From the IMG/VR virus record IMGVR_UViG_3300009285_001996: a stretch of 64,000 bases of DNA; one strand, 5' to 3'. Positions 1,709 to 48,617 of this stretch are shown here, piece by piece (positions within the stretch are counted from its first letter, which is position 1; the number at the start of each line of letters is the position of its first letter). Origin of the DNA: a virus. The notes under the pieces were generated by a model. The model was not told the origin of the DNA. It saw nothing but the letters and a program-made list of their open reading frames with translations, and did no database searches. Position numbers and translations under genes: made by a program.

Positions 1709-1978
1709 ATGGAACCATTATCTAATGTAGTCTACGACTGTGGGTTATTTGTAGATGAACCAAAACCAAAAGGAATGGCTAAAATAGGAATGAAGATGAG
1801 GGGGGTGGCTAATCTGTCGGTGACTTCTAAATATGATGTTGAGTTGGGCGACGGATTATCGGTTAAACAAGTGGGTGATTCTATAGCTAACTCTCCTGCT
1901 GAACAGATTGCGCTCTTAGTAGAATATCTTAAAGTTAAAAAGGGGGTTGATATTGTTAATTTATTTGTTGTGTATTAG
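1709..1978 (+). CDS. hypothetical protein
   Basis: ORF abutting the previous gene. Confidence 0.55.
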   Translation: MEPLSNVVYDCGLFVDEPKPKGMAKIGMKMRGVANLSVTSKYDVELGDGLSVKQVGDSIANSPAEQIALLVEYLKVKKGVDIVNLFVVY

Positions 1979-1981
1979 AAA

Positions 1982-2062
1982 AGTAAAGTTGATGTAATGT
2001 ATAGTAATGTTACGTTTAGTCGAGTATTGTTTAGTGGAGTGAAGTATATCTGAAAAAGATGT
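1982..2062 (+). repeat. Array A: 5-nt periodic (A/T/C)GT-NN array with 3' hairpin; putative guide ncRNA (orphan copy)
   Basis: agtaa agttga tgtaa tgtat agtaa tgtta cgttt agtcg agtat tgttt agtgg agtga, then agtat-ATCT-gaaaa-AGAT-gt. Confidence 0.85.
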
Positions 2063-2087
2063 TTTGTTTTATGAAAGAAGGTGGTGT

Positions 2088-2402
2088 ATGGACGATATAA
2101 GGTATATAAGAATTGTCGGCGAGGGGGTTGACATTATCTCCAAGGTAGAGTATGATGACCATCAACAGGCGTGGCGGTTGACAAAACCGATGGGTATAAT
2201 AGTTACGGAACAGGGTGTTGGGTTTATGAAATATCCAATGTTTGGTTCTATGCTAATGGTTAGTGGTGGCGATTCAATTTTGATTAAAGATGAGCATATT
2301 TTGTGGATAGAGACTCCTACTACAGAGTTAGAAAATGCTTACAGGGTAAACGTCTTACATGGTATTAGCGTTCCTACTCAGGGATTAGTATTACCAAATT
2401 AA
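2088..2402 (+). CDS. Sm-like-fold phage hypothetical protein
   Basis: MDDIRYIRIVGEGVDIISKV...ILIKDEHILWIETPTTELENAY resembles the small Sm-like proteins common in large myoviruses (recognition only). Confidence 0.55.
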   Translation: MDDIRYIRIVGEGVDIISKVEYDDHQQAWRLTKPMGIIVTEQGVGFMKYPMFGSMLMVSGGDSILIKDEHILWIETPTTELENAYRVNVLHGISVPTQGLVLPN

Positions 2403-2404
2403 GG

Positions 2405-2986
2405 ATGTTGATTGTGTTTGATAAAATCCAAGATTTGTATTGGCAAATTGTGCCCTATGATTGGCGGCTTCGCCAGATCGTTTACCGCTTGCGGTGTTTT
2501 TTCTGGTGTCGGTATACCACAGTAAAACCCAGAACTCTTCCTTACCACACATGGACGGATCGAGATAATTTGCTTGCGCACTGTTCATTTGAGATATTAT
2601 CACGCTTTATTGAAAACGAGTGTTCTCCCGGTAATGTAGATTGGTACTCGGATGATTGTCCGCATAAGATAGTGGTAAACGGAGTTGAGAAATGGGTTAG
2701 GGACGAAATGCAGGAGATTTATGAATGGTGGCATAACAAATATATTAAGGGTCAAAATGACGAAAATGAACGATTGCATAAGGAAATAGAGAAAGTAGAA
2801 CCTATTACATATACTGGTGAAAAAGATGGTCAGTGGTATTGGGAGCCTCAATTTAAGTGTGAGGAAGACGCGGTGGAGTGGAAAGGGTATATGCGGGCAT
2901 TAAGTGATTTAGAGCGTAATATTGAGAGCGAGCTACAGTTAATGCTTCACAGACTCGTTGATATACGACAATATATGTGGACCTAA
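2405..2986 (+). CDS. hypothetical phage protein
   Basis: 193-aa Trp-rich ORF ending LVDIRQYMWT. Confidence 0.7.
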   Translation: MLIVFDKIQDLYWQIVPYDWRLRQIVYRLRCFFWCRYTTVKPRTLPYHTWTDRDNLLAHCSFEILSRFIENECSPGNVDWYSDDCPHKIVVNGVEKWVRDEMQEIYEWWHNKYIKGQNDENERLHKEIEKVEPITYTGEKDGQWYWEPQFKCEEDAVEWKGYMRALSDLERNIESELQLMLHRLVDIRQYMWT

Positions 2987-3022
2987 CCAATTGCCGCTTT
3001 AGATGACTCAACAAGGAATATA

Positions 3023-4153
3023 GTGGGAAGTATCTCAGTGAAAATTTCGTCAGATATAAAATTCGATTTCGACGATGTTCTTATCAGACCGCAACGATCT
3101 ACTTTGATTAGTAGGGCAGACGTTATTTTGGAGAGAGAATTCCAATTCTATCATAGCCCAAGAATTTGGCAGGGAATTCCAATTGTGTGTTCTAACATGG
3201 CGGCTATAGCTGGATTTGAGATGGCTACCGCTCTCGCAAAACACAAGATGGTAACATGCCTTCATAAGTACATTTCCACAGACGACCTTATCAATTTTTT
3301 TGTGGAACATAAAGATTTAGTGGATTATGTGTGGGTAAGTGTTGGCTATGGCGATGATGAAATAGACAAGTTAATAAGGATCACAAAGGAGGTTGGGTTT
3401 CAACCAAACGTTTGTATAGACATCGCTAATGGACACCTAGAATGCTTTGTCCAATATTGTGCTGATATAAGAAATGATTTTCCAGATTCTATTATTATGG
3501 CAGGAAATGTTTGTATACCAGAATCAACACAAGAGTTAATTTTACATGGGTATGTAGATTTGATTAAGATCGGAACTGGCGGAGGAAGCGCCTGCCTGTC
3601 TAGGATGGTTACTGGAGTGGGATGCCCCCAATTATCAGCATTGGATATTTGTGCAAGCGCTGCCCACGGATTAAAGTCGGCAGAGAAAAGGTTGGGGTTA
3701 GTATGTTCAGATGGTGGGTGTAAAACAGCGGGCGATGTATGCAAGGGATTTGTTGCTGGCGCAGATTTTTTGATGCTGGGAGGAATGCTAGCGGGCACAA
3801 AGGAGTGTTGTGGAGAATGGACTACAGAGTATAAGGATGTGTGGGGTTGTTGGAACGAAGAAACGCATACTGATGAAGAATTAAAAAAGTGGAGAAATAT
3901 AAAGAGTCGTAAAAAGTCATTAAAAGTATATGGTATGTCATCCCATCTTGCGCAGGAAAAGCATGGAGTAGGTAAGAAAGACTATCGAGCATCAGAGGGC
4001 GTGGTTATAGAAGTACCCTACAAGGGGAGCGTTGACGATGTAGTACAGGAAATATTAGGCGGGATTCGGTCATGCGCGACGTACATCGGGGCGTGCTCTC
4101 TGAAAGATTTTTCTAAGTGTGGAGAATTTATTCGGGTTTGTAGACAAAAATAA
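3023..4153 (+). CDS. guaC: GMP reductase (IMPDH/GMPR family)
   Basis: FDFDDVLIRPQRS, CIDIANGH, KIGTGGGSACLSR (catalytic Cys), DGGC, YGMSS, YRASEG motifs; no CBS domains. Confidence 0.88.
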   Translation: MGSISVKISSDIKFDFDDVLIRPQRSTLISRADVILEREFQFYHSPRIWQGIPIVCSNMAAIAGFEMATALAKHKMVTCLHKYISTDDLINFFVEHKDLVDYVWVSVGYGDDEIDKLIRITKEVGFQPNVCIDIANGHLECFVQYCADIRNDFPDSIIMAGNVCIPESTQELILHGYVDLIKIGTGGGSACLSRMVTGVGCPQLSALDICASAAHGLKSAEKRLGLVCSDGGCKTAGDVCKGFVAGADFLMLGGMLAGTKECCGEWTTEYKDVWGCWNEETHTDEELKKWRNIKSRKKSLKVYGMSSHLAQEKHGVGKKDYRASEGVVIEVPYKGSVDDVVQEILGGIRSCATYIGACSLKDFSKCGEFIRVCRQK

Positions 4154-4165
4154 GGGAGTATTTTA

Positions 4166-4930
4166 ATGTGCAAAATTCTAAAATCACTCATTTGCTTAAC
4201 TTTAATATTATATAGTTCTATTTTATTTGCACAAAATCAAGTTATCAAAAATATACGGAATTTAACTGTAGGAATTACTGTTGAAACGCCAATGGGGGGA
4301 GCAAATGGTTCTGGTATCCTGTTTTCCTGTAACAATCAAACTTATGTATTAACTGCGGGACACGTAGTTTCTGTTGCTAGAATTATTGGGTTTAAGCGAA
4401 CTAAAACAGAAAGCCAACAATTAGTAGCCTATGCGCCCATTTTTATAGAGCAAATAGTTGATAGCGGTAAAACTAAAAAACTAAGAAAATTTCCAGCAAC
4501 TATAGTGCGTAATGGACTAATACACGATAATCTTGATGTAGCCGTTTTAATGCTTATAGACGTAGATCAAGAAAACAATCTTAGTTTTGATTTCAATGAA
4601 CCAGACATAGGGACAAACACTTTGGGATGTGGGCAGTTGTTAGATAGTGAGTTATTAACTACGGATGGTATTGTTAGTGAAATATATACGACAACTGATT
4701 ATGGTTTTCATCATCAGGCTACAAATAATGTTCAAGGTGGGTTTTCTGGTGGTGGAATCTTTAATGCCGATAACGGTAAATGTATAGGTATAATTACTCA
4801 AAAAACACTTGTAGGATGTGCTTTTGTACCATCTGGTGAAATTCTTAAATGGCTACAAGATAATGAAATAAATTGGTTAGTTGATAATTCTGAACCGTTG
4901 GACAATGTTTTAACATTAGAATTGGATTAG
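4166..4930 (+). CDS. secreted trypsin-like serine protease
   Basis: Signal peptide; LTAGHV (His), LDVAVL (Asp), GFSGGG (Ser). Confidence 0.8.
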   Translation: MCKILKSLICLTLILYSSILFAQNQVIKNIRNLTVGITVETPMGGANGSGILFSCNNQTYVLTAGHVVSVARIIGFKRTKTESQQLVAYAPIFIEQIVDSGKTKKLRKFPATIVRNGLIHDNLDVAVLMLIDVDQENNLSFDFNEPDIGTNTLGCGQLLDSELLTTDGIVSEIYTTTDYGFHHQATNNVQGGFSGGGIFNADNGKCIGIITQKTLVGCAFVPSGEILKWLQDNEINWLVDNSEPLDNVLTLELD

Positions 4931-4940
4931 GGAGATTTTT

Positions 4941-5441
4941 ATGCGGAAACATGAAGTATTCTTAAAGTGGTGGCTTTTAGTTGTGTTGATGAGTGTCGGA
5001 TTTTATTTTGTTTATGCTTATGGTTTGTTTAATGAATTATGGAATAAAGATTTTACCAAAATTACGCTTATTATACTTGGGGGATTTTTATTAACATCGT
5101 TACAGTGTGGCATTAAAACATTTCGTTTAAGTAGTTCTATAAATAAAAAACAATGGGAAAATGTTGCAGAAATAGAGAAGGAATTATCTATTGGTTATTT
5201 CGCTTGTGCCATATTTGTTTCACTAGGTTTATTAGGTACGTTAATTGGTATGGTATACTCCTTACAAGGTTTCGCCACAATTGATGTTAGTAATTTAACC
5301 ACTATTCAAGGTTTAATTCCCAAATTAACTATGGGTGTATCAACAGCGCTCTATACCACTATTGTTGGTGTTATTTGTTCTATTTTGCTAAAACTACAAT
5401 ATTTCAATTTGGAATATATTATTAGGAAATATCATGGATAA
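4941..5441 (+). CDS. MotA/TolQ/ExbB-family membrane protein
   Basis: Four TM segments; LGLLGTLIGM and GVSTALYTTIVG motifs. Confidence 0.8.
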   Translation: MRKHEVFLKWWLLVVLMSVGFYFVYAYGLFNELWNKDFTKITLIILGGFLLTSLQCGIKTFRLSSSINKKQWENVAEIEKELSIGYFACAIFVSLGLLGTLIGMVYSLQGFATIDVSNLTTIQGLIPKLTMGVSTALYTTIVGVICSILLKLQYFNLEYIIRKYHG

Positions 5442-6045
5442 TGAAAAATATAGTGATGGACTTGTATTTTTCGACCTACTATTTAATCTTTTATGTTGTT
5501 TTATTATACTGTTTTCCCTTGCCTATATATTAGTTAATGAACAAAATAAAAGTGATCGCGCCGTAGAAAATACAGCGGAGTTTCTAATTACCTTCATCTG
5601 GGCTAACGAAATTGGAGACGATGTAGATGCCTATGTTGAAGACCCTCTTGGTAATTTAGTGTTTTTCAGGCGTAGAGAAGAAGGGTTAATGCACCTAGAC
5701 AGGGATGATTTGGGTAAAAGGAACGATGTAGTTAGATTGGCTGACGGTACAACGGTAAAGTCTGATGAAAATAAAGAAATAGTCACCATTCGAGGTATTA
5801 TACCGGGGGAATATGTGGTCAACACCCACATGTATTATAAAACGGAAGATAGCGAACAAACCGAAGTTACAATTAAGTTAGAAAAGATAAACCCTAAATT
5901 AAGACTTATTACTCAAAAAACAGTAATACTTAGTGATAATGGTGATGAAAAAACCGCTTTTAGATTTAATATTGATAAAGAAGGCGATGTAACTGGAGTT
6001 AATGAGTTGAAAAAGGATTTGGCTAATTTAACACATCAGGAGTAA
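5434..6045 (+). CDS. single-TM partner of the MotA/TolQ-like protein
   Basis: N-terminal TM with an Asp (FFDLLFNLL) as in MotB/ExbD/TolR; soluble domain DDVDAYVEDP...LDRDDLG; overlaps the upstream gene. Confidence 0.6.
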   Translation: MDNEKYSDGLVFFDLLFNLLCCFIILFSLAYILVNEQNKSDRAVENTAEFLITFIWANEIGDDVDAYVEDPLGNLVFFRRREEGLMHLDRDDLGKRNDVVRLADGTTVKSDENKEIVTIRGIIPGEYVVNTHMYYKTEDSEQTEVTIKLEKINPKLRLITQKTVILSDNGDEKTAFRFNIDKEGDVTGVNELKKDLANLTHQE

Positions 6046-6048
6046 ACC

Positions 6049-6657
6049 GTGGAAACTCTATGGATTCCCCTTGCGTACATTTTATCGTTGACAATCGCTC
6101 TGTGGTTTATTATTGGGTGTCGTGGATTCTGGCTATTAAAAACCGCTATTATTGGTGTGGTAGCATATATAGGAATTTGTATTTGGATTACATTACCAAC
6201 ATTTGAGGGATGGTCAACTAAATCGCCATTACCAGTTAAATTTGAGATTAAATGGGCTGATGTTAAGGAGCCAAACAAAAAAACTGGTGATAATGGCGTT
6301 ATATTTGTTTGGATACAATCTTTGTGTGTTGCAGAAACTAAAACTTTTACTATTGATTCATTGAAACCGTTTTTTGTGGTATTACACCAAAGAGATCAAA
6401 TAAAAGAGCCTCGTTTACATCAGTTGCCTTATTCCAGGTCGGGGCATCAACAAGCGAATGAAATCCAAAACATTATTAAGGATGGTGGAAAGTTTTTTGG
6501 TACGACCAATAAGGGCGGAACGGGGAAAGAAGGACAAAACGGTAATGGAGATGGGAGTAATAGTGGTGATGGTGGTAGTTTAAGCCAAGAGCAAGTCCCT
6601 ATGTTTTATCAATTACCCCCCCCACATTTTCCTGCTAAAGATGAGCACTCAATCTGA
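6049..6657 (+). CDS. membrane protein, third gene of the MotA/TolQ-like module
   Basis: Two N-terminal TM segments, Gly-rich C-terminal tail, AGGAG RBS. Confidence 0.6.
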   Translation: METLWIPLAYILSLTIALWFIIGCRGFWLLKTAIIGVVAYIGICIWITLPTFEGWSTKSPLPVKFEIKWADVKEPNKKTGDNGVIFVWIQSLCVAETKTFTIDSLKPFFVVLHQRDQIKEPRLHQLPYSRSGHQQANEIQNIIKDGGKFFGTTNKGGTGKEGQNGNGDGSNSGDGGSLSQEQVPMFYQLPPPHFPAKDEHSI

Positions 6658-7303
6658 CTTTATATTAGATAAATTTAATGGTCAAACTGGTTATTTTGTG
6701 GATGTTGGTGCAAGCGACGGCTTTAACGATTCCAATACTCTAGACTTAGAGAAAAACGGTTGGAGCGGTATTTGTATTGACGGACTAGAGCGTAATTACC
6801 AATCACTGTTGCAAACTCGCTCGTGTTATTGTGTAAACGCTGTTATTGCAGGAGAGAATAGGAAAGCCGAATTTGTCTGTCAGGGGAAATCTGGTAGTAA
6901 TGGATTGGGTGGTAGTGGTCTAACCGAATTTATGGACAAACCACACCTAGATTTTATCATTCATCATTTAGGCGGTCGTCTTACAACGGTAAAAACTAGA
7001 ACACTGGAATCCGTCCTTCGGGAATACTTCGCCCCTCTCACTATAGATTTTCTGGATGTGGATGTGGAAGGTGCCGCCTGGGAGATTCTGAGAAATTTTC
7101 CGTTTACCAAGTGGCGGTTTTCGTATATTAATGTTGAGGTATCAGCAGAATTGACACCACCACTAACTTCCCTGCTAAATAGATATGGGTATGTAGAATG
7201 TGGTCGTTTTGGTCAGGACGTAATGTTTAAGTATAATAAGGTTAGCACAACCAAAAAAAGGATAAAGTGGAATATGTTCTTTGGTAAGTATATAATAAAA
7301 TAA
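6641..7303 (+). CDS. FkbM-family SAM methyltransferase
   Basis: YFVDVGASDG...SNT, GWSGICID, IDFLDVDVEGA motifs. Confidence 0.85.
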   Translation: MSTQSDFILDKFNGQTGYFVDVGASDGFNDSNTLDLEKNGWSGICIDGLERNYQSLLQTRSCYCVNAVIAGENRKAEFVCQGKSGSNGLGGSGLTEFMDKPHLDFIIHHLGGRLTTVKTRTLESVLREYFAPLTIDFLDVDVEGAAWEILRNFPFTKWRFSYINVEVSAELTPPLTSLLNRYGYVECGRFGQDVMFKYNKVSTTKKRIKWNMFFGKYIIK

Positions 7304-7315
7304 ACCTTATAATTT

Positions 7316-7390
7316 AGTTACGTCAAGTGATGTATAGCGATGTGGCGTGGAGTATTGTATAGTGAAGTTAAGAATAACCGAAAAGGTTGT
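7316..7390 (+). repeat. Array B: 5-nt periodic array with 3' hairpin; putative guide ncRNA
   Basis: agtta cgtca agtga tgtat agcga tgtgg cgtgg agtat tgtat agtga agtta, then agaat-AACC-gaaaa-GGTT-gt. Confidence 0.9.
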
Positions 7391-7392
7391 AT

Positions 7393-7569
7393 ATGATAAA
7401 TGATTTTGTTATCCTATTTCAAGATTTAGAATCAAATATTATTGAATATGAGTGTAGTGTGTGTGGTGAAGTATTTATTGCAGATTACGCATTAGGAATA
7501 AATTTGGATATAAGTTCTGGCGATAGAGCAAGATGTCCCAATTGTGATAGTGTAGATAATTCATTTTAG
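7393..7569 (+). CDS. small Zn-ribbon protein
   Basis: CSVC...CPNC; fills the gap between arrays B and C. Confidence 0.65.
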   Translation: MINDFVILFQDLESNIIEYECSVCGEVFIADYALGINLDISSGDRARCPNCDSVDNSF

Positions 7570-7627
7570 TGATGTAGAGCGATGTGATGCAGAGTGCTGT
7601 TGTGTTGAGAACATCTGAAAAAGATGT
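7568..7627 (+). repeat. Array C: 5-nt periodic array with 3' hairpin; putative guide ncRNA
   Basis: agtga tgtag agcga tgtga tgcag agtgc tgttg tgttg, then agaac-ATCT-gaaaa-AGAT-gt. Confidence 0.85.
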
Positions 7628-7674
7628 ATTGTTTTTTATGTAATGCTTTTAATTTTAATTTAAGGAGTTGTATT

Positions 7675-8205
7675 ATGAAGAAAATTGTGAGTGTAACTAT
7701 TAAGGGAGTTGCTCCACTTTTACTAAATCGCCCATTAACGGACGAGGAAAGTGGTGGTGGTAGCAAAAAGAAAACCGAAATCTTAGCACCAGAACAGAAA
7801 GCTAACTCCGTCAATTATTTTGATGAGGAAGTTGGTTGTTATGTCCCCAATTCAATGATTAAGGCATCACTGCGAGACGCTAGTAAGAATTTTAAGCGTG
7901 GTCGTGGTAATTATGCCAAGACCCTAAAGGCTAAGTTATTCGTGACTCCAGAAAAGATTCCTCTAAACAAACAAACTTTTGATCTAATCGACCGTCGAGC
8001 GGCTAAGCTACCAACTAACGGAGCAATGATTACAGCTTCTCGCCCAAGATATGAAAATTGGGAGTTGAGTTTTAAGGTTGAATATGATGATACAACTATT
8101 GATGACAAAACTTTGAGGGAAATTTTTGATGAGGCTGGTAGTTCAACATGTATCGGGAGTTATAGACCGGAGTTTGGAAGGTTTGAAGTTGTTAAGTTTG
8201 AGTAA
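7675..8205 (+). CDS. stand-alone Cas7/RAMP-like RNA-binding protein
   Basis: N-terminal VTIKGVAPLLL strand, YVPNSMIKASLRDA helix motif, RPRYENWELSFKV, C-terminal Gly-rich loop IGSYRPEFGRFEV typical of RAMP/Cas7-group folds; AAGGAG RBS before ATG 7675. Confidence 0.75.
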   Translation: MKKIVSVTIKGVAPLLLNRPLTDEESGGGSKKKTEILAPEQKANSVNYFDEEVGCYVPNSMIKASLRDASKNFKRGRGNYAKTLKAKLFVTPEKIPLNKQTFDLIDRRAAKLPTNGAMITASRPRYENWELSFKVEYDDTTIDDKTLREIFDEAGSSTCIGSYRPEFGRFEVVKFE

Positions 8206-8224
8206 TATATTAATTTTACCATAA

Positions 8225-8290
8225 TGTCAAGTTAAGTTAAGTGCGGTGTAGTACAGTCTCAGTATAGTCTAGTATACCACAATATGGTGT
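8225..8290 (+). repeat. Array D: 5-nt periodic array with 3' hairpin; putative guide ncRNA
   Basis: tgtca agtta agtta agtgc ggtgt agtac agtctc agtat agtct, then agtat-ACCA-caata-TGGT-gt. Confidence 0.85.
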
Positions 8291-8327
8291 ATGTTTTTAA
8301 CAATATAAAATATTAAATAACAATAAA

Positions 8328-8397
8328 TGTACATCGAAGTCAAGTACAGTATAGTCAATTAAAGTGAAGTTTAGTCTAGAATAACCGAAAGGGTTGT
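8328..8397 (+). repeat. Array E: 5-nt periodic array with 3' hairpin; putative guide ncRNA
   Basis: tgtac atcga agtca agtac agtat agtca attaa agtga agttt agtct, then agaat-AACC-gaaag-GGTT-gt. Confidence 0.85.
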
Positions 8398-8399
8398 AT

Positions 8400-8795
8400 G
8401 TGTCTGATTTAATCACTCCATCAATCTTAGATATTAAAGCTGATATAGAGTATTGGTGGAAACAATTTACTATTAAGTTAGAGGTTCCGTTATCTGAATT
8501 ATTCCCAGAACCAGAAAAGGGGTGGGTAAAACACATTTGGAAACATGGGTCCGCTGATTTATGCGTCTTTCATAGTAATAAGTTAATATGTATTATCGAG
8601 GCGCATGGACACCACCATTTTAGTAATAAAAAACAAATAATGAACGATAAAAGAAAAGCTAAATTATGTCAAATTAACAATATTGGATGTTTACAAGTCG
8701 CAAACAGTGTAAGAGATACAATAGCAAGGAGAAAATGGAGAAGGTTATTGGGTAAATATATATGGAACGATTGTGTGAAGTGTAGTACAGTCTAG
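8400..8795 (+). CDS. PD-(D/E)XK / Vsr-like (DUF2726/DUF559-type) nuclease
   Basis: ADLCVF...IIEAHGHHH...DKRKAKLCQINNIGCLQV pattern; start uncertain (GTG 8400 or TTG 8394); 3' end overlaps array F. Confidence 0.65.
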   Translation: MSDLITPSILDIKADIEYWWKQFTIKLEVPLSELFPEPEKGWVKHIWKHGSADLCVFHSNKLICIIEAHGHHHFSNKKQIMNDKRKAKLCQINNIGCLQVANSVRDTIARRKWRRLLGKYIWNDCVKCSTV

Positions 8796-8848
8796 TTGTG
8801 TATAGTCGATTACTGTGCTGTGATGTGTAGAATAGCGGAAAATGCTGT
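8774..8848 (+). repeat. Array F: 5-nt periodic array with 3' hairpin; putative guide ncRNA
   Basis: tgtga agtgt agtac agtct agttg tgtat agtcg attac tgtgc tgtga tgtgt, then agaat-AGCG-gaaaa-TGCT-gt. Confidence 0.9.
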
Positions 8849-8883
8849 AATTATTTTCTTACTTTTAACAATGGAGATTTCTA

Positions 8884-9270
8884 ATGGCAAGTTTTAACAA
8901 GGTTATTTTGATGGGTAATGCCACTCGTGATGTAGAACTACGGTATATCCCAAGCGGTAAAGCCGTGGCTGACTTATCACTGGCGGTTAATAATCGTCGT
9001 AAGAGTGGTGACGAATGGGTAGAAGACGTAGTGTTTGTAGATTGTACAGTTTGGGGTCGCACTGCGGAAGTTGCTGCGGAATATGTAAAAAAGGGTAAGC
9101 CTGTTTTAGTAGAAGGCAAACTTATTCAAGATAGCTGGGAAACACCAGATGGACAGCGACGTACAAAGTTAAAGGTTGTTGTTGATTCTATGCAATTATT
9201 GGGCGGTAAGCCTCAAGATAACGAAGGCGATACACCAGCAGTTGGTGATGACGACGATTTACCAATCTAG
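8884..9270 (+). CDS. ssb: single-stranded DNA-binding protein
   Basis: [36 protein letters not shown], acidic tail DDDDLPI. Confidence 0.95.
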
Positions 9271-9451
9271 CAGGAGAATAATAAGTGAAGGACTTCGCTT
9301 TACTTATACTAGCGTTAATAGTTATAGTATTGGCATTTAATGCTGGTAAACAACAATCTACCAATAAAGCCGTTATCGAGGCTATACACCAACACAACAT
9401 AGCCATTTGTGATATGAATAGTTCAATAGAAATGTTGGGGGGGTTGAAAAA

Positions 9452-17096: not shown

Positions 17097-17714
17097 GTGG
17101 AGATTAAAATTGTAAAAACATTGGATGAATTAGCCAAAATATGGGAATTGACATATAGTGAGTATTTACGAGAGGGTTATTGTTCTCCGCGTCCATGTAA
17201 TAAACTATGTCACTATAAGCATTTAGATATTACAGACAATGGTGAGTTATACCCTCAAACAACCGTGTATTATGTAGAAGAATATGGAGAGGTGGTGGGG
17301 ACAAACAGTATTACATTGGATGGACTAGGGGGACTGCACGTTGATGGCTCATTTCGAGAAGCTGTAGATGAAATCAGATTAGAGGCAAAAGAAGCGAAAA
17401 AGGTGTTGGCGTCATCATGGAGAATTGTAACAAGTTATAAGTTGCGCAATACTATATCTGTATTAACAGAGTTAGTTAATGTTGTATATAACCAAATTGT
17501 AAAAAATAATATTGATATTACTTTATTTATTTTCCACCCAAAACACGCACAATTTTACGAACGAATGGTGGGATTAAAGACGATTGCTGGACCACTCTCA
17601 GAACTTGCGGTTACTGGTCATCCAGCCGTGTTAATGAGGGGCGACATAGAAGATGTTGATATATGGCGTAATACATACGCTAGACTTAAAAGAAGAGGTA
17701 GAAAAAATGCGTGA
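17097..17714 (+). CDS. GNAT-fold N-acyl amino acid synthase (FeeM-like)
   Basis: YSEYLREGY, VGTNSITLDGLGGLHVD, HPKHAQFYERMVG, HPAVLM resemble FeeM/NAS acyltransferases. Confidence 0.6.
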   Translation: MEIKIVKTLDELAKIWELTYSEYLREGYCSPRPCNKLCHYKHLDITDNGELYPQTTVYYVEEYGEVVGTNSITLDGLGGLHVDGSFREAVDEIRLEAKEAKKVLASSWRIVTSYKLRNTISVLTELVNVVYNQIVKNNIDITLFIFHPKHAQFYERMVGLKTIAGPLSELAVTGHPAVLMRGDIEDVDIWRNTYARLKRRGRKNA

Positions 17715-44274: not shown

Positions 44275-46200
44275 ATGAAACAAATAGCTATTTTGCATGC
44301 TCATAGTGATTTTAGTTTGCTAGATTCTATCGCCAAACCCAAACAAATCTACAAGCGATGCCAAGAAATTGGAGCTTCAGCTTGTGCGATAACCGACCAC
44401 GGCACCATCTGTGGCAGCGTTCAGTTTAATACTATATTCAAAGATATTAAACCCATAATTGGTGTGGAGGCATATTGTTGTAATAATGTTAGTAACAAAG
44501 ACAATAGGGATTTCGCCCATCTGGTTGTGTTAGCCAAAAATTACGATGGATATATAGACCTATGTAAACTTACTTCAGCATCTAACTTACCAGAAAATTT
44601 CTACTATAAGCCAAGGGTTGATCTAAATTTACTGAGAGCGTATTGTAGGGGAAACTGGATAGCGTTTTCGGGACACGCTGGCTCCCACCTATTTAATTCC
44701 ATATTTGATAATCTTCCTGCCGTTTACAATGCTAGCCTGGAAAGTTCAATCAAAAAGTTGGTATCACCAGATGCGGTTGCTCGCACATCAAAATTAGCGT
44801 TAGAACTACAGGACATTTTCGGCGTTGGCAATTTCTACATTGAAATCCAACTTATCGACGAGTGTAATATAGCAGGGAAAGTAGGGGTAGAAGTATTGAG
44901 AGAGGTTTCCCGCAAGGTTGGCATTCCATGTGTGGCGACCCCAGATTCCCATTATTGTTATAGAAAAGACGCCGTTAACCAGCGTGTACTATTATGCACC
45001 AACATGCACACCACCCTACGGGAAGTCCAAAATAAGATGGTGCGGGGCGAAGATGTGGGAATGGGGGCTTTTTTTCGCACCGACTCTTACCACATTCCAG
45101 AATATAGCGAAATGGTGGCGGCTGGAAATACAGAGGGGGAACTAGAAAACACATTAAGGATAGCGGACGCCTGTGAGCGGTACGACTTAACTCGCCCCCC
45201 TTCTCCTGCTAAATTTCCCACACCGAACGGCATTTCTCCCGAAGAATATTTAACCGAGTTATGTAGGCAAGGTTACAAGGATAAATTACCACTAATTAAA
45301 AAGGTAATGGAAAAGAAGGGATTAACTAAGGAGGATTACGGAAATAGGTTTAGGCATGAATTAGAAGTAATTAAGGAGGCTGGTTTAAGTGACTACTTTC
45401 TAACAGTTAGAGATATTGTACAATATGCTATTAATGATGGACAACTTGTTGGTCCAGCTAGAGGATCATCAGCAGGAAGTCTAATAGCTTATTTGTGTGG
45501 AATTACAAAACTTTGTCCGTTAGAATATAATTTATTGTTTGAGAGGTTCTACAATAAAGCTCGTAAGGGGGCGATGCCGGACATCGACTCAGACTACATG
45601 ACTGGAGAGCATGGTCGGGATAAAGTAATACAATATATTAGATATAGATATGGTAGGGATAAAGTAAGCAATATTGCGACATATGGTAGGATGCAAGGTA
45701 GATCGGTATTAAAAGATGTCCTAAGATCATTTGAGGCTTGTTCGTTCGAGGAGATGGGGAGAATTACGGAATTTATTAGCGATGAGGGCAGTATATCAGA
45801 AAAACTTTTGGAAATGAGGGAGGCAGACAAAGAAAGCGGCGGCGACGGCGAAGCTAGTATTATTGATTACTGTTTAGATACTTATCCAAAAGAGTTAAGT
45901 GAGTGGTGCTATAAAGACGATGATGGTAATTTACAAGGTCCATTAGCTAAAAAATTCCAAGTCGCAGTATCTTTAGAGGGGACTAAACGATCTCAAGGGA
46001 AACATGCTGGTGGAGTTGTTATTTCAGATCATCCACTATCTGAACTAGTTCCAATGATTAGAGACAAGGATGGTAATGAACTAATAGCTGGACTAGAAAT
46101 GTCAGATATTGAAAAAAGAGGTTTAATAAAGCTAGATATCCTTGGTGTTAACGCCCTTAATAAACTTAGGTCTATAGAAAGGTTGGTTAATGAATTATAA
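44275..46200 (+). CDS. dnaE: DNA polymerase III alpha, N-terminal part (PHP plus palm)
   Basis: HAHSDFSLLD, ITDHG, DSHY, GPARGSSAGS, PDIDSD, HAGGVVIS, KLDILG. Confidence 0.92.
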   Translation: MKQIAILHAHSDFSLLDSIAKPKQIYKRCQEIGASACAITDHGTICGSVQFNTIFKDIKPIIGVEAYCCNNVSNKDNRDFAHLVVLAKNYDGYIDLCKLTSASNLPENFYYKPRVDLNLLRAYCRGNWIAFSGHAGSHLFNSIFDNLPAVYNASLESSIKKLVSPDAVARTSKLALELQDIFGVGNFYIEIQLIDECNIAGKVGVEVLREVSRKVGIPCVATPDSHYCYRKDAVNQRVLLCTNMHTTLREVQNKMVRGEDVGMGAFFRTDSYHIPEYSEMVAAGNTEGELENTLRIADACERYDLTRPPSPAKFPTPNGISPEEYLTELCRQGYKDKLPLIKKVMEKKGLTKEDYGNRFRHELEVIKEAGLSDYFLTVRDIVQYAINDGQLVGPARGSSAGSLIAYLCGITKLCPLEYNLLFERFYNKARKGAMPDIDSDYMTGEHGRDKVIQYIRYRYGRDKVSNIATYGRMQGRSVLKDVLRSFEACSFEEMGRITEFISDEGSISEKLLEMREADKESGGDGEASIIDYCLDTYPKELSEWCYKDDDGNLQGPLAKKFQVAVSLEGTKRSQGKHAGGVVISDHPLSELVPMIRDKDGNELIAGLEMSDIEKRGLIKLDILGVNALNKLRSIERLVNEL

Positions 46201-46879
46201 TACATTTTGCGTTTTTGATTTCGAGACAGGTGGAAGAAACCCACATACCTGCGAAATATTACAAATTGGGGCAATTATGGTTTGTGAGCGAACACTAACC
46301 AGACTGTCTAGTTTTACATCATTTGTTAAACCTCATAATATGGACACTGTAGAGGATGACGCTCTAAAAGTAAATGGTATAAGCAGGGAAATGCTGGATG
46401 GATTGAGTGAAGCCTTTTATCCAGAGGTTATTTGGGCAAAGTTTTCAGCGTGGGTAAATAAATACAATAAGAGTAAGGGGGCTCCATCTCCATATAATGC
46501 CCCTATTCAGTGTGGATTTAATACAATAAATTTCGATATGACAATTTTGCGACGTTATTGTAAACTATATGGACCTTGGGATTTAAAAAATGAAGACCAA
46601 AAATTGTTTAATCAAGTGTATAAAATAGACGTTATGGATTTGGTATGGTTGTGGTTCGAGCATTCTAATGCAGTGGAGAATTTGCGATTGACGACCATCG
46701 CCAAACATTTGGGGGTGGAAGAACGGCGATTAGAAAAAGCCCACGACGCTTTAGTAGATTGTGAATACTGCGCTGACATTATAATTGAGTATTTACGCAG
46801 AAGTAGGCTTAAATTACCAAGTATGAATTATATGAAGGATATGTTGAAGCCTAAATCAAACGAGGTTGTCAATGAGTAA
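46190..46879 (+). CDS. DEDDh 3'-5' exonuclease (DnaQ/epsilon-like)
   Basis: VFDFETGG, GFNTINFD, AHDALVD. Confidence 0.88.
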   Translation: MNYNTFCVFDFETGGRNPHTCEILQIGAIMVCERTLTRLSSFTSFVKPHNMDTVEDDALKVNGISREMLDGLSEAFYPEVIWAKFSAWVNKYNKSKGAPSPYNAPIQCGFNTINFDMTILRRYCKLYGPWDLKNEDQKLFNQVYKIDVMDLVWLWFEHSNAVENLRLTTIAKHLGVEERRLEKAHDALVDCEYCADIIIEYLRRSRLKLPSMNYMKDMLKPKSNEVVNE

Positions 46880-48617
46880 ATTTTGTATTGAAAATATTCC
46901 ATTAGATGATACAGATACCTACAAACTGTTAGGTGAAGGTAGAACATATGGAATTTTTCAGTTAGAGTCGCCATTAGGTCGCCACTGGTCAAAACAATTG
47001 TTACCAACTAGCATAAGTGATTTAGGCGCTTTAATCGCCATCTTACGCCCTGGTGCATTAAAGGCTTTATCAACAGATTTTCAAGGAAAAGATATAAATA
47101 ATGATAGAGATTTAGTAGAAATGGCTGTCTGTAAAGACATAGTAAAACGCAATGGTAATAATTATATTTTTGATAGAAAAACATTTGATGATGAAAATTC
47201 TTTATTGGAAGATAGTGGCAGACGAGAAAAAATTACTAAAAAAGTAACGACAGCCTACACCAAAAGTATGACTCAAAGGTTTTGTGACCGCAAGAATAAT
47301 AGGGAAGAAACAACGTATATAGATAAGTCTCTTGAACCAATATTAAAAGATACTTATGGTCAATTGATATATCAAGAGGGTGCTTTACAAATAGCTAGAG
47401 ATATTGCTGGGTTTACATTAGAGGACGGAGAATTGCTTAGAAAAAGTATTGGAAAAAAGCTGCCTAAATTAATGGCTGAATTAAAGGATAAATTTATTGA
47501 AGGTTGTTTGCGTGTTAATAAAGTTAATAAAGAAATAGCAGAAGAAATATTTGGATGGATACAAGAGTCTCAAAAATATTCGTTCAACCAATCACATAGT
47601 ATATCATATTCAATAACCACATATCATACAGCATATTGTAAAACACATTACCCCTTGCAATTCTATTGCGCATACCTCCAAGGTTCCGCTGGTAAAATCG
47701 ACAAGCACGAAGAAGTAAAGGCTTTATATGCGGACGCTAAACAATCGGGAATCGAGGTTAAATTACCAGATTTACGCCACAAACAGGTACTAGCCTATAT
47801 TAAGAACGACAAAGTATATTTTGGGCTATCTGATATAAAATTCGTGGGCGTTTCCGCCCTAAATAGTATTTTACAATCAATAACCGAAATAGAAAATAAA
47901 TTAGAGCAGGAAGTGTGCAACTGGTCGTGGACAAATTATTTAATACACTTTTCCGACAATATAGCCAGTGACACAAATAAAGCCCTAATTAGTGCGGGCG
48001 CTCTTGACTACCTTGGCGTACAACGTCAACAAATGCTCTACGAATATGACACTTGGAATTTGCTGACTAAAAAAGAGAAACAATACATTAAAGAGGGCAG
48101 ACAATATACCGATTTGTCAAATGCCCTTTTATTTTGTTCCCCCACTAAGAAAAATGGCGGTGGGTGCAACGGACAATCTAGGTCTAGCAAATTAACTGGA
48201 TTTATTCAGCAGTTAGCCCACCCTGAACATTCCTTGCAAGATACTCCTGATAAACTAGCATGGTTAGAAGAGAAATATTTAGGAGTGTCGTTAAGTTTTC
48301 GTAGATCGGACGTTGGTGCCCCCGAGAGTAACTTTAGTTGTGCCGAGTTCAACGACGGCGGCGGGAAAGAGTACGTTGTAATGGCGGTTGAAGTGGAAAA
48401 TGTTAAAAAAATTAAGACAAAGAATGGGGATAATCCAGGGGAGGACATGGCGATCTACACGGTTTCCGACAAAAGCGGTCAATTAGAGGGATGTGTCTGT
48501 TTTCCCGATGCCTGGCGAGAATTTGGGGCCATCATCTATGTTGGCAATTCATTGAAAATGCAGGGAAATAGGGGGCGGAAGGGGGGGTTTATTCTGGAAA
48601 AATGCTGGGAAATCTAG
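46872..48617 (+). CDS. dnaE: DNA polymerase III alpha, C-terminal part (fingers, HhH, OB)
   Basis: IPLDD..GIFQLES, LRPG, TYGQLIYQE, YSFNQSHS, FGLSDIKFVG, C-terminal OB fold. Confidence 0.9.
   Translation: MSKFCIENIPLDDTDTYKLLGEGRTYGIFQLESPLGRHWSKQLLPTSISDLGALIAILRPGALKALSTDFQGKDINNDRDLVEMAVCKDIVKRNGNNYIFDRKTFDDENSLLEDSGRREKITKKVTTAYTKSMTQRFCDRKNNREETTYIDKSLEPILKDTYGQLIYQEGALQIARDIAGFTLEDGELLRKSIGKKLPKLMAELKDKFIEGCLRVNKVNKEIAEEIFGWIQESQKYSFNQSHSISYSITTYHTAYCKTHYPLQFYCAYLQGSAGKIDKHEEVKALYADAKQSGIEVKLPDLRHKQVLAYIKNDKVYFGLSDIKFVGVSALNSILQSITEIENKLEQEVCNWSWTNYLIHFSDNIASDTNKALISAGALDYLGVQRQQMLYEYDTWNLLTKKEKQYIKEGRQYTDLSNALLFCSPTKKNGGGCNGQSRSSKLTGFIQQLAHPEHSLQDTPDKLAWLEEKYLGVSLSFRRSDVGAPESNFSCAEFNDGGGKEYVVMAVEVENVKKIKTKNGDNPGEDMAIYTVSDKSGQLEGCVCFPDAWREFGAIIYVGNSLKMQGNRGRKGGFILEKCWEI

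Follow-up and report, generated by a model that had tools for sequence, protein, structure and literature searches.

The DNA studied here, a window of 64,000 nucleotides within a viral record of 90,938 nt (IMG/VR record IMGVR_UViG_3300009285_001996), carries a guide (array F, 8774–8828, plus strand) whose specificity against ssb, an essential gene, is well supported, and which fits foreign alleles of this gene better than the allele of the phage itself, found beside it (8884–9270, plus strand). The guide is real and the VIPR system to which it belongs is already known; a role directed at the host is unproven but plausible.

The locus is a VIPR system, because six WGT-NN arrays surround a Vipr gene; this family was published in 2026, as were its skip-one code and its WGT scaffold. 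The vipr gene (7675–8205, plus strand) encodes a RAMP/Cas7-like protein of 176 aa that matches the Vipr of SUSP1 (E 8.1e-12, and 7.6e-25 in a profile search) and has no Pfam match; its structure model (pLDDT 85) has a fold that matches Csm3/Cas7-type chains, and no cas family was found among the 78 window proteins scanned. The traits of the family recur here: (i) a small RAMP, with an RRM core, a thumb and a G-loop, outside a CRISPR locus, together with tandem 5-nt units and a structured 3′ tail; (ii) the skip-one rule, all 128 database sites of guide F being in codon register; (iii) and finally, for guide F, a self site of 17/22, or 77%, which is under 80%. As far as the available parts of the literature describe them, the systems of SUSP1 and of P. 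fulva (type II VIPR, PDB 36pp) are similar in their Vipr RAMP, their guides of 5-nt repeats, their 3′ tail, their wobble skip-one code and a self match lower than the non-self match. The present system differs from them in its WGT scaffold and G-loop Ser, where they have GGY and Asp, in its short hairpin tail, in a DUF2726-like accessory gene carried on a phage, and in a predicted cellular housekeeping target.

The six tracts of 5-nt units all lie on the plus strand between 1993 and 8828, and none is found elsewhere in the 90,938-nt record. Each unit is made of a fixed triplet and two variable bases; AGT (29) and TGT (18) account for 47/57 triplets, within the YNNNG and WGT/NN variants of the published papers, and the canonical SUSP1-like GGY scaffold is not found, with one triplet in 57 starting with G and Ser162 in place of Asp. 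Array A (1993–2063), which stands alone 5.6 kb upstream of vipr, has 10 units and a tail nearly identical to that of array C; array B (7306–7391) has two degenerate 5′ units, 11 clear units from 7316 and a tail, and resembles a dCTP deaminase motif; array C (7568–7628) has 8 units and a tail; array D (8225–8291) has 7 units, a register break of 1 nt, 2 further units and a tail; array E (8328–8398) has 10 units and a tail; and array F has 11 units of a WGT-type triplet and NN, the first 22 nt of which (8774–8795) overlap the last codons of the accessory gene. The VIPR locus also contains a small zinc-ribbon ORF (7387–7569), which separates array B from array C and whose stop (7553–7569) adjoins the latter. 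Arrays D and F have the run GT-AC-CT in common, plus a later AT unit, and they may have a common origin, which could account for the odd unit 6 of F.

The tail, which in array F occupies 8829–8849 (plus strand), is a 4-bp stem with a 5-nt loop common to all six arrays; in this structure, derived from the six paralogous arrays themselves, 24/24 cells of the stem are paired, with 8 compensatory changes, and 0/500 shuffles are as good. Related Vipr loci have GGY arrays and a similar tail. Rfam gave no match within 1800–9400, and no variants of array F were found in the one of four sequencing runs that covers it.

The ORF at 8394–8795 (plus strand, start at 8394 or 8400) can be considered the accessory (vap) gene of the system because of its recurrent place beside vipr, where its relatives are found in 35/80 metagenome and 4/79 viral Vipr loci. 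It is DUF2726-like (Pfam DUF2726, E 4e-4, below the cut-off; Atlas 0.93) with a predicted nuclease fold, and keeps Asp, Glu and His invariant in 32/32 relatives. A nuclease activity of its protein is predicted, DUF2726 being a nuclease-like family. In a VIPR paper, predicted nucleases are attributed to the host-defence types III and V alone.

In SUSP1 the first G of the scaffold is read by Asp177 of the G-loop (10.64898/2026.04.26.720920; 10.64898/2026.04.26.720927; 10.64898/2026.10.15.759431), and Ser162 (8158–8160) is found here at that position. In each of the 69/69 metagenome loci that combine Asp with an array, scaffold position 1 is G in 23–100% of the units (median 90%), many TGT units being tolerated in some loci with Asp; the other Ser loci for which there is DNA, L211 and L212, have 0%. 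Over 149 representatives the residue is D in 80, S in 9, T in 8, A in 6, another in 6, and unparsed in 40. A quick tree of 88 Vipr proteins groups the window with P0002, a Vipr 72% identical to it, and L211 (support 94), beside L209 (Asp, 43% G), which amounts to one evolutionary contrast and not to several. Within this one contrast the change from Asp to Ser appears to track the loss of the scaffold G, a one-residue hypothesis for scaffold specificity; if true, the scaffold would through this change no longer be bound to GGY, and the system would be orthogonal to those that use GGY.

The variable bases of array F, which read GA GT AC CT TG AT CG AC GC GA GT over 11 units, have their best skip-one site in the whole 90,938-nt record, both strands considered, at 9040–9071 (plus strand) within the ssb of the phage, a gene of Planctomycete type (Pfam SSB, E 7e-33; 47–68% identity to cellular matches; tree). 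The preliminary description had already seen this resemblance to the adjacent gene, at 8/11 dinucleotides and 17/22 nt, with every third base skipped, and it was reproduced in full: the mismatches are in units 2, 4 and 6, the last five units are perfect, the skipped base is the wobble (third codon) position, and a skip of one is the best, which is the published VIPR rule. The range it gave, 8774–9072, mixes the guide, its tail and part of ssb. As the NN string reads as the ssb sense strand, the guide would pair with template-strand DNA, a point of that description that also holds computationally. Other readings of the array were rejected, since skips of 0 or 2 reach at most 15/22 in the record, no better than shuffles, and the reversed order of units scores at shuffle level. 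A second, divergent ssb of the phage (49198–49590, plus strand), found in the replication module and 27% identical to the first, offers guide F a best site of 15/22; at 44275–48617 the DNA polymerase III alpha is split in two ORFs around an exonuclease gene.

Taken alone across the whole genome the match is modest, as at least 17 is reached by 35/1500 unit shuffles and by 46/1500 base shuffles of the guide. With p at 0.02–0.03 and six arrays available, with a register break in array D, and with simple arithmetic expecting a random guide to reach 20/22 somewhere in GTDB, the resemblance could be attributed to chance, or the array to a decayed and inactive relic. This we find very hard to believe, because within 8829–9300 only 3/20,000 shuffles reach at least 17, so that the match to the adjacent gene is rare locally, if weaker genome-wide, and because the register is that of the wobble position, vipr is intact and the tails covary. 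Precisely because any guide would be expected to find 20/22 somewhere in GTDB, the decisive test is one in which the guide takes no part in choosing the targets. To this end 119 SSB homologues were found with the phage SSB protein and compared with the guide at the amino-acid level, where the unit fit is an upper bound on base matches: 42 fit 10 units, 37 fit 9, 32 fit 8 and 8 fit fewer, with 8 for the phage's own protein, and 10,000 guide shuffles on the same homologues gave a best of 8 units and none higher (0/10,000). A chance origin of the match is thus largely refuted. The earlier proposal of a better fit to a foreign Planctomycete-type ssb is borne out by 79/119 of these homologues, and the contrary outcome, in which none would match better than self, was not found. 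The motif given in support of it, DVTLWGRTAEV, is real among SSBs, but it is still mismatched at unit 6, where the guide has AT and the target mostly GG.

The foreign targets can also be sought directly. No exact target (22/22 over 11 units) was found in IMG/VR viral contigs, GTDB or JGI metagenomes, the best being 21/22, and no other guides in viral contigs have the same NN string under any scaffold. With unit 6 freed, a choice made after seeing the self mismatch, the database search gave ssb in every case: 8/8 loci in viral contigs, about five of them independent, at 20/22, and 120/120 GTDB loci returned from 19/64 parts scanned, at 20–21/22, for an estimated total of about 420. Unit 6 of the 120 GTDB sites is GG in 108, GC in 7, GA in 3, AA in 1 and TC in 1, and it is never AT, the letters of the guide, in the 128 sites; among 286 other guides, not one converged on these loci. 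By record title the GTDB loci are 98 Planctomycetota, 16 Verrucomicrobiota and 6 other, and rpsF is upstream in 76/80 and rplI downstream in 51/80 of those with flanks, which identifies the sites as chromosomal housekeeping genes. When up to three mismatches are allowed over the whole pattern (at least 19/22), 67/101 genomes of the order of Rhodopirellula, the Pirellulales of GTDB, match (control 2), and in a phylum-wide sample only 12/301 (control 3). In one sample that holds the phage, one GC-rich ssb contig matches at about 19/22 (a single contig, depth 3.5); in three of four sequencing runs nothing was assigned to a host ssb, which does not show it to be absent.

An alternative use of the guide would be autoregulatory, in that it would dampen its own ssb 200 nt downstream by partial pairing, or would have drifted from a full match to it, taking advantage of a self site in cis that no other site in the record surpasses and that is perfect in the five tail-proximal units, at the end where, in the available descriptions of the SUSP1 structures, unwinding starts. 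This is improbable in our view, because the residues encoded by units 2 and 4 of the guide are those of most homologues (V in 93/119, L in 84/119) and not the C and V of the phage, a pair present in 0/119 homologues, because this Cys is common to 5/6 rows of the small clade of the phage SSB in the tree, and because a VIPR paper found no self match of at least 80%. Of the conserved positions, 19/91 differ from the family majority in the phage SSB, and 2 in 11 at the guide site is therefore no excess. Of the “diverged allele” of the preliminary description there thus remains that the phage's own ssb differs from the guide; a recent escape of this allele is rejected, since there is no excess divergence and the Cys is shared within the clade, and guide F seems to exploit an older allele difference. 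In the related 160-kb phage of locus L209 (6579–8016) the order is ssb, vipr, guide and accessory gene, with a half-TGT scaffold, and its guide does not fit ssb despite ssb being directly before vipr; the adjacency of ssb and vipr therefore predates guide F or is independent of it.

According to the VIPR papers, as far as available, in SUSP1 one Vipr covers each unit, the NN bases pair with one strand of dsDNA, the target strand, and skip every third base, unwinding and pairing start at the tail end and advance from there, with completion possible one position at a time, targeting either strand represses, and the guides match the satellite target at an average of 89.2%, with an authors' cut-off of 80% (10.64898/2026.04.26.720920; 10.64898/2026.04.26.720927; 10.64898/2026.10.15.759431). 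The foreign site at 20/22, or 91%, is near that average, and the self site is under the cut-off. From the observed Vipr homology, arrays, covarying tail and codon-register match to ssb, a mechanism can be proposed, about which we are evenly divided: a Vipr-RNA filament would bind ssb on the chromosome of a host presumed to be of Pirellulales type, silencing or cutting this gene, and the phage copy would probably escape. This supposes that the RNA of array F is expressed, that the host is of that type, as the SSB suggests with weak tree support, and that the two alleles are discriminated, all of which we infer. At a foreign site, units 11–7 would pair, unit 6 would fail and units 5–1 would pair, whereas at the self site units 11–7 would pair and failures would follow at 6, 4 and 2, in the distal half; binding would thus be stable on foreign alleles and weak on self, which may still be bound through the five perfect tail-proximal units where unwinding starts. 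The foreign ssb would be silenced by the filament, or cut via the predicted accessory nuclease, a block inside the host gene would be polar on the downstream rplI, and SSB for the phage would come from the two genes that it carries.

A second guide offers a lead in the same direction. The peptide decoded from guide B (7306–7370) is similar to the dCTP deaminase motif found in genomes of Pirellulales type; the match is in codon register, at 18–23 of 26 nt over 30 orthologues, and the two degenerate upstream units of the guide, outside the search pattern, match Ile-Phe in 30/30 of them. The chromosomal dCTP deaminase is no more than a candidate target, because the gene was chosen post hoc, after a first match in 2/61 genomes that is at chance level, and because 0/151 genomes of the phylum sample reach at least 23/26; dcd was not found in the record, which is 61% complete. 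For the host targets of the others the results were negative: guide A matched 9/61 genomes (control 2) at sites that are not orthologous, guide C 12/51 (control 10), guide E 1/101 and 1/61, and guide D is too short for a genome search. As raw scores, A, C and E reach 70–78% within the record, and guide B has an 18/22 site on the minus strand (6606–6637), which lies shortly before the start of an FkbM methyltransferase. A three-gene MotA/ExbB-like membrane module lies at 4941–6657, and a FeeM-like N-acyl amino acid synthase adjoining a sigma-factor-like gene at 17097–17714. The more complete picture, of a VIPR turned on host housekeeping genes, with F on ssb in the rpsF-ssb-rplI operon and B on dCTP deaminase, made order-wide by a wobble-blind code, possibly with nuclease cutting, and with a spared ssb behind the guide and the Asp-to-Ser change of scaffold, is one that we advance tentatively, at somewhat less than even confidence.

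It could be, on the other hand, that selection directed guide F at the ssb of rival phages or prophages of Planctomycetes, and that it fits host chromosomes because the ssb of those phages is derived from the host. All 8/8 viral matches are ssb at 20/22, with neighbours of phage type (RecT, RusA, portal, resolvase); the mismatch at unit 6 may point to an unsampled virus as the true target; the host is called from SSB alone; no host target was found for guides A, C and E; and in the available text of the VIPR papers the targets are mostly mobile elements (satellites, prophages) and a self match lower than non-self is already described (10.64898/2026.04.26.720920; 10.64898/2026.04.26.720927; 10.64898/2026.10.15.759431). 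However, the 8 viral loci, about five of them independent, stand against about 420 estimated cellular ones, even if the sampling of viruses is poorer, patterns made for close relatives confirmed no dCTP deaminase relative in viruses, and the order-wide chromosomal sites, the ssb contig at about 19/22 in a sample with the phage, the spare SSB and guide B all point to the cell, so that, while this explanation is possible, we would sooner doubt it than accept it. Moreover, to the complex a site in the host and an identical one in a rival phage would be indistinguishable, and both would be hit; a host carrying the ssb site would be struck anyway.

Several known systems come close to the one proposed here. 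The skip-one code and the WGT/NN arrays are already published and are not new here: non-canonical VIPR arrays likewise have a WGT/NN repeat beside a Vipr-like fold, and the available passages on them name neither their targets nor a residue to which the scaffold could be attributed (10.64898/2026.10.21.760802). The solo vrRNAs of satellites likewise point Vipr at the host chromosome, at REP elements, but they are decoys at non-coding repeats, whereas here a full system would be directed at a single-copy coding gene (10.64898/2026.10.15.759431). Silencing and replacing a host gene has two precedents, in the parts of those reports available. The prophage TldR-gRNA with FliC-P likewise serves a phage to repress a host gene by means of a guide RNA, with the phage isoform adjoining; unlike the present case it is TnpB-derived, has a contiguous guide, a promoter target and a non-essential flagellin, and was shown experimentally (PMC13418256). 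Among huge-phage CRISPR systems, one phage targets the host sigma70 and encodes its own, with CRISPR arrays and contiguous spacers, and this is likewise only a prediction (PMC7162821). No report came up in a literature search on phages that repress an essential host gene by RNA guidance and carry a copy of their own, and “ssb” is absent from two VIPR papers searched for it and from the supplement PDF (PMC13142463) of the VIPR paper 10.64898/2026.04.26.720920, whose Data S1–S4 may list such targets or the accessory gene.

In the available text of the VIPR papers, phage-borne guides are weapons against other mobile elements (10.64898/2026.04.26.720920; 10.64898/2026.04.26.720927; 10.64898/2026.10.15.759431), and the words mismatch tolerance were not found in that of the structure paper. 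The two natural sites described here, at 20/22 and 17/22, share their five tail-proximal units and lend themselves directly to a test of this tolerance in VIPR. If the proposed reading is true, the guides would name the host order of an uncultured phage, and a guide on an essential host gene, together with a spared adjoining copy of that gene, would extend VIPR to the takeover of the host.
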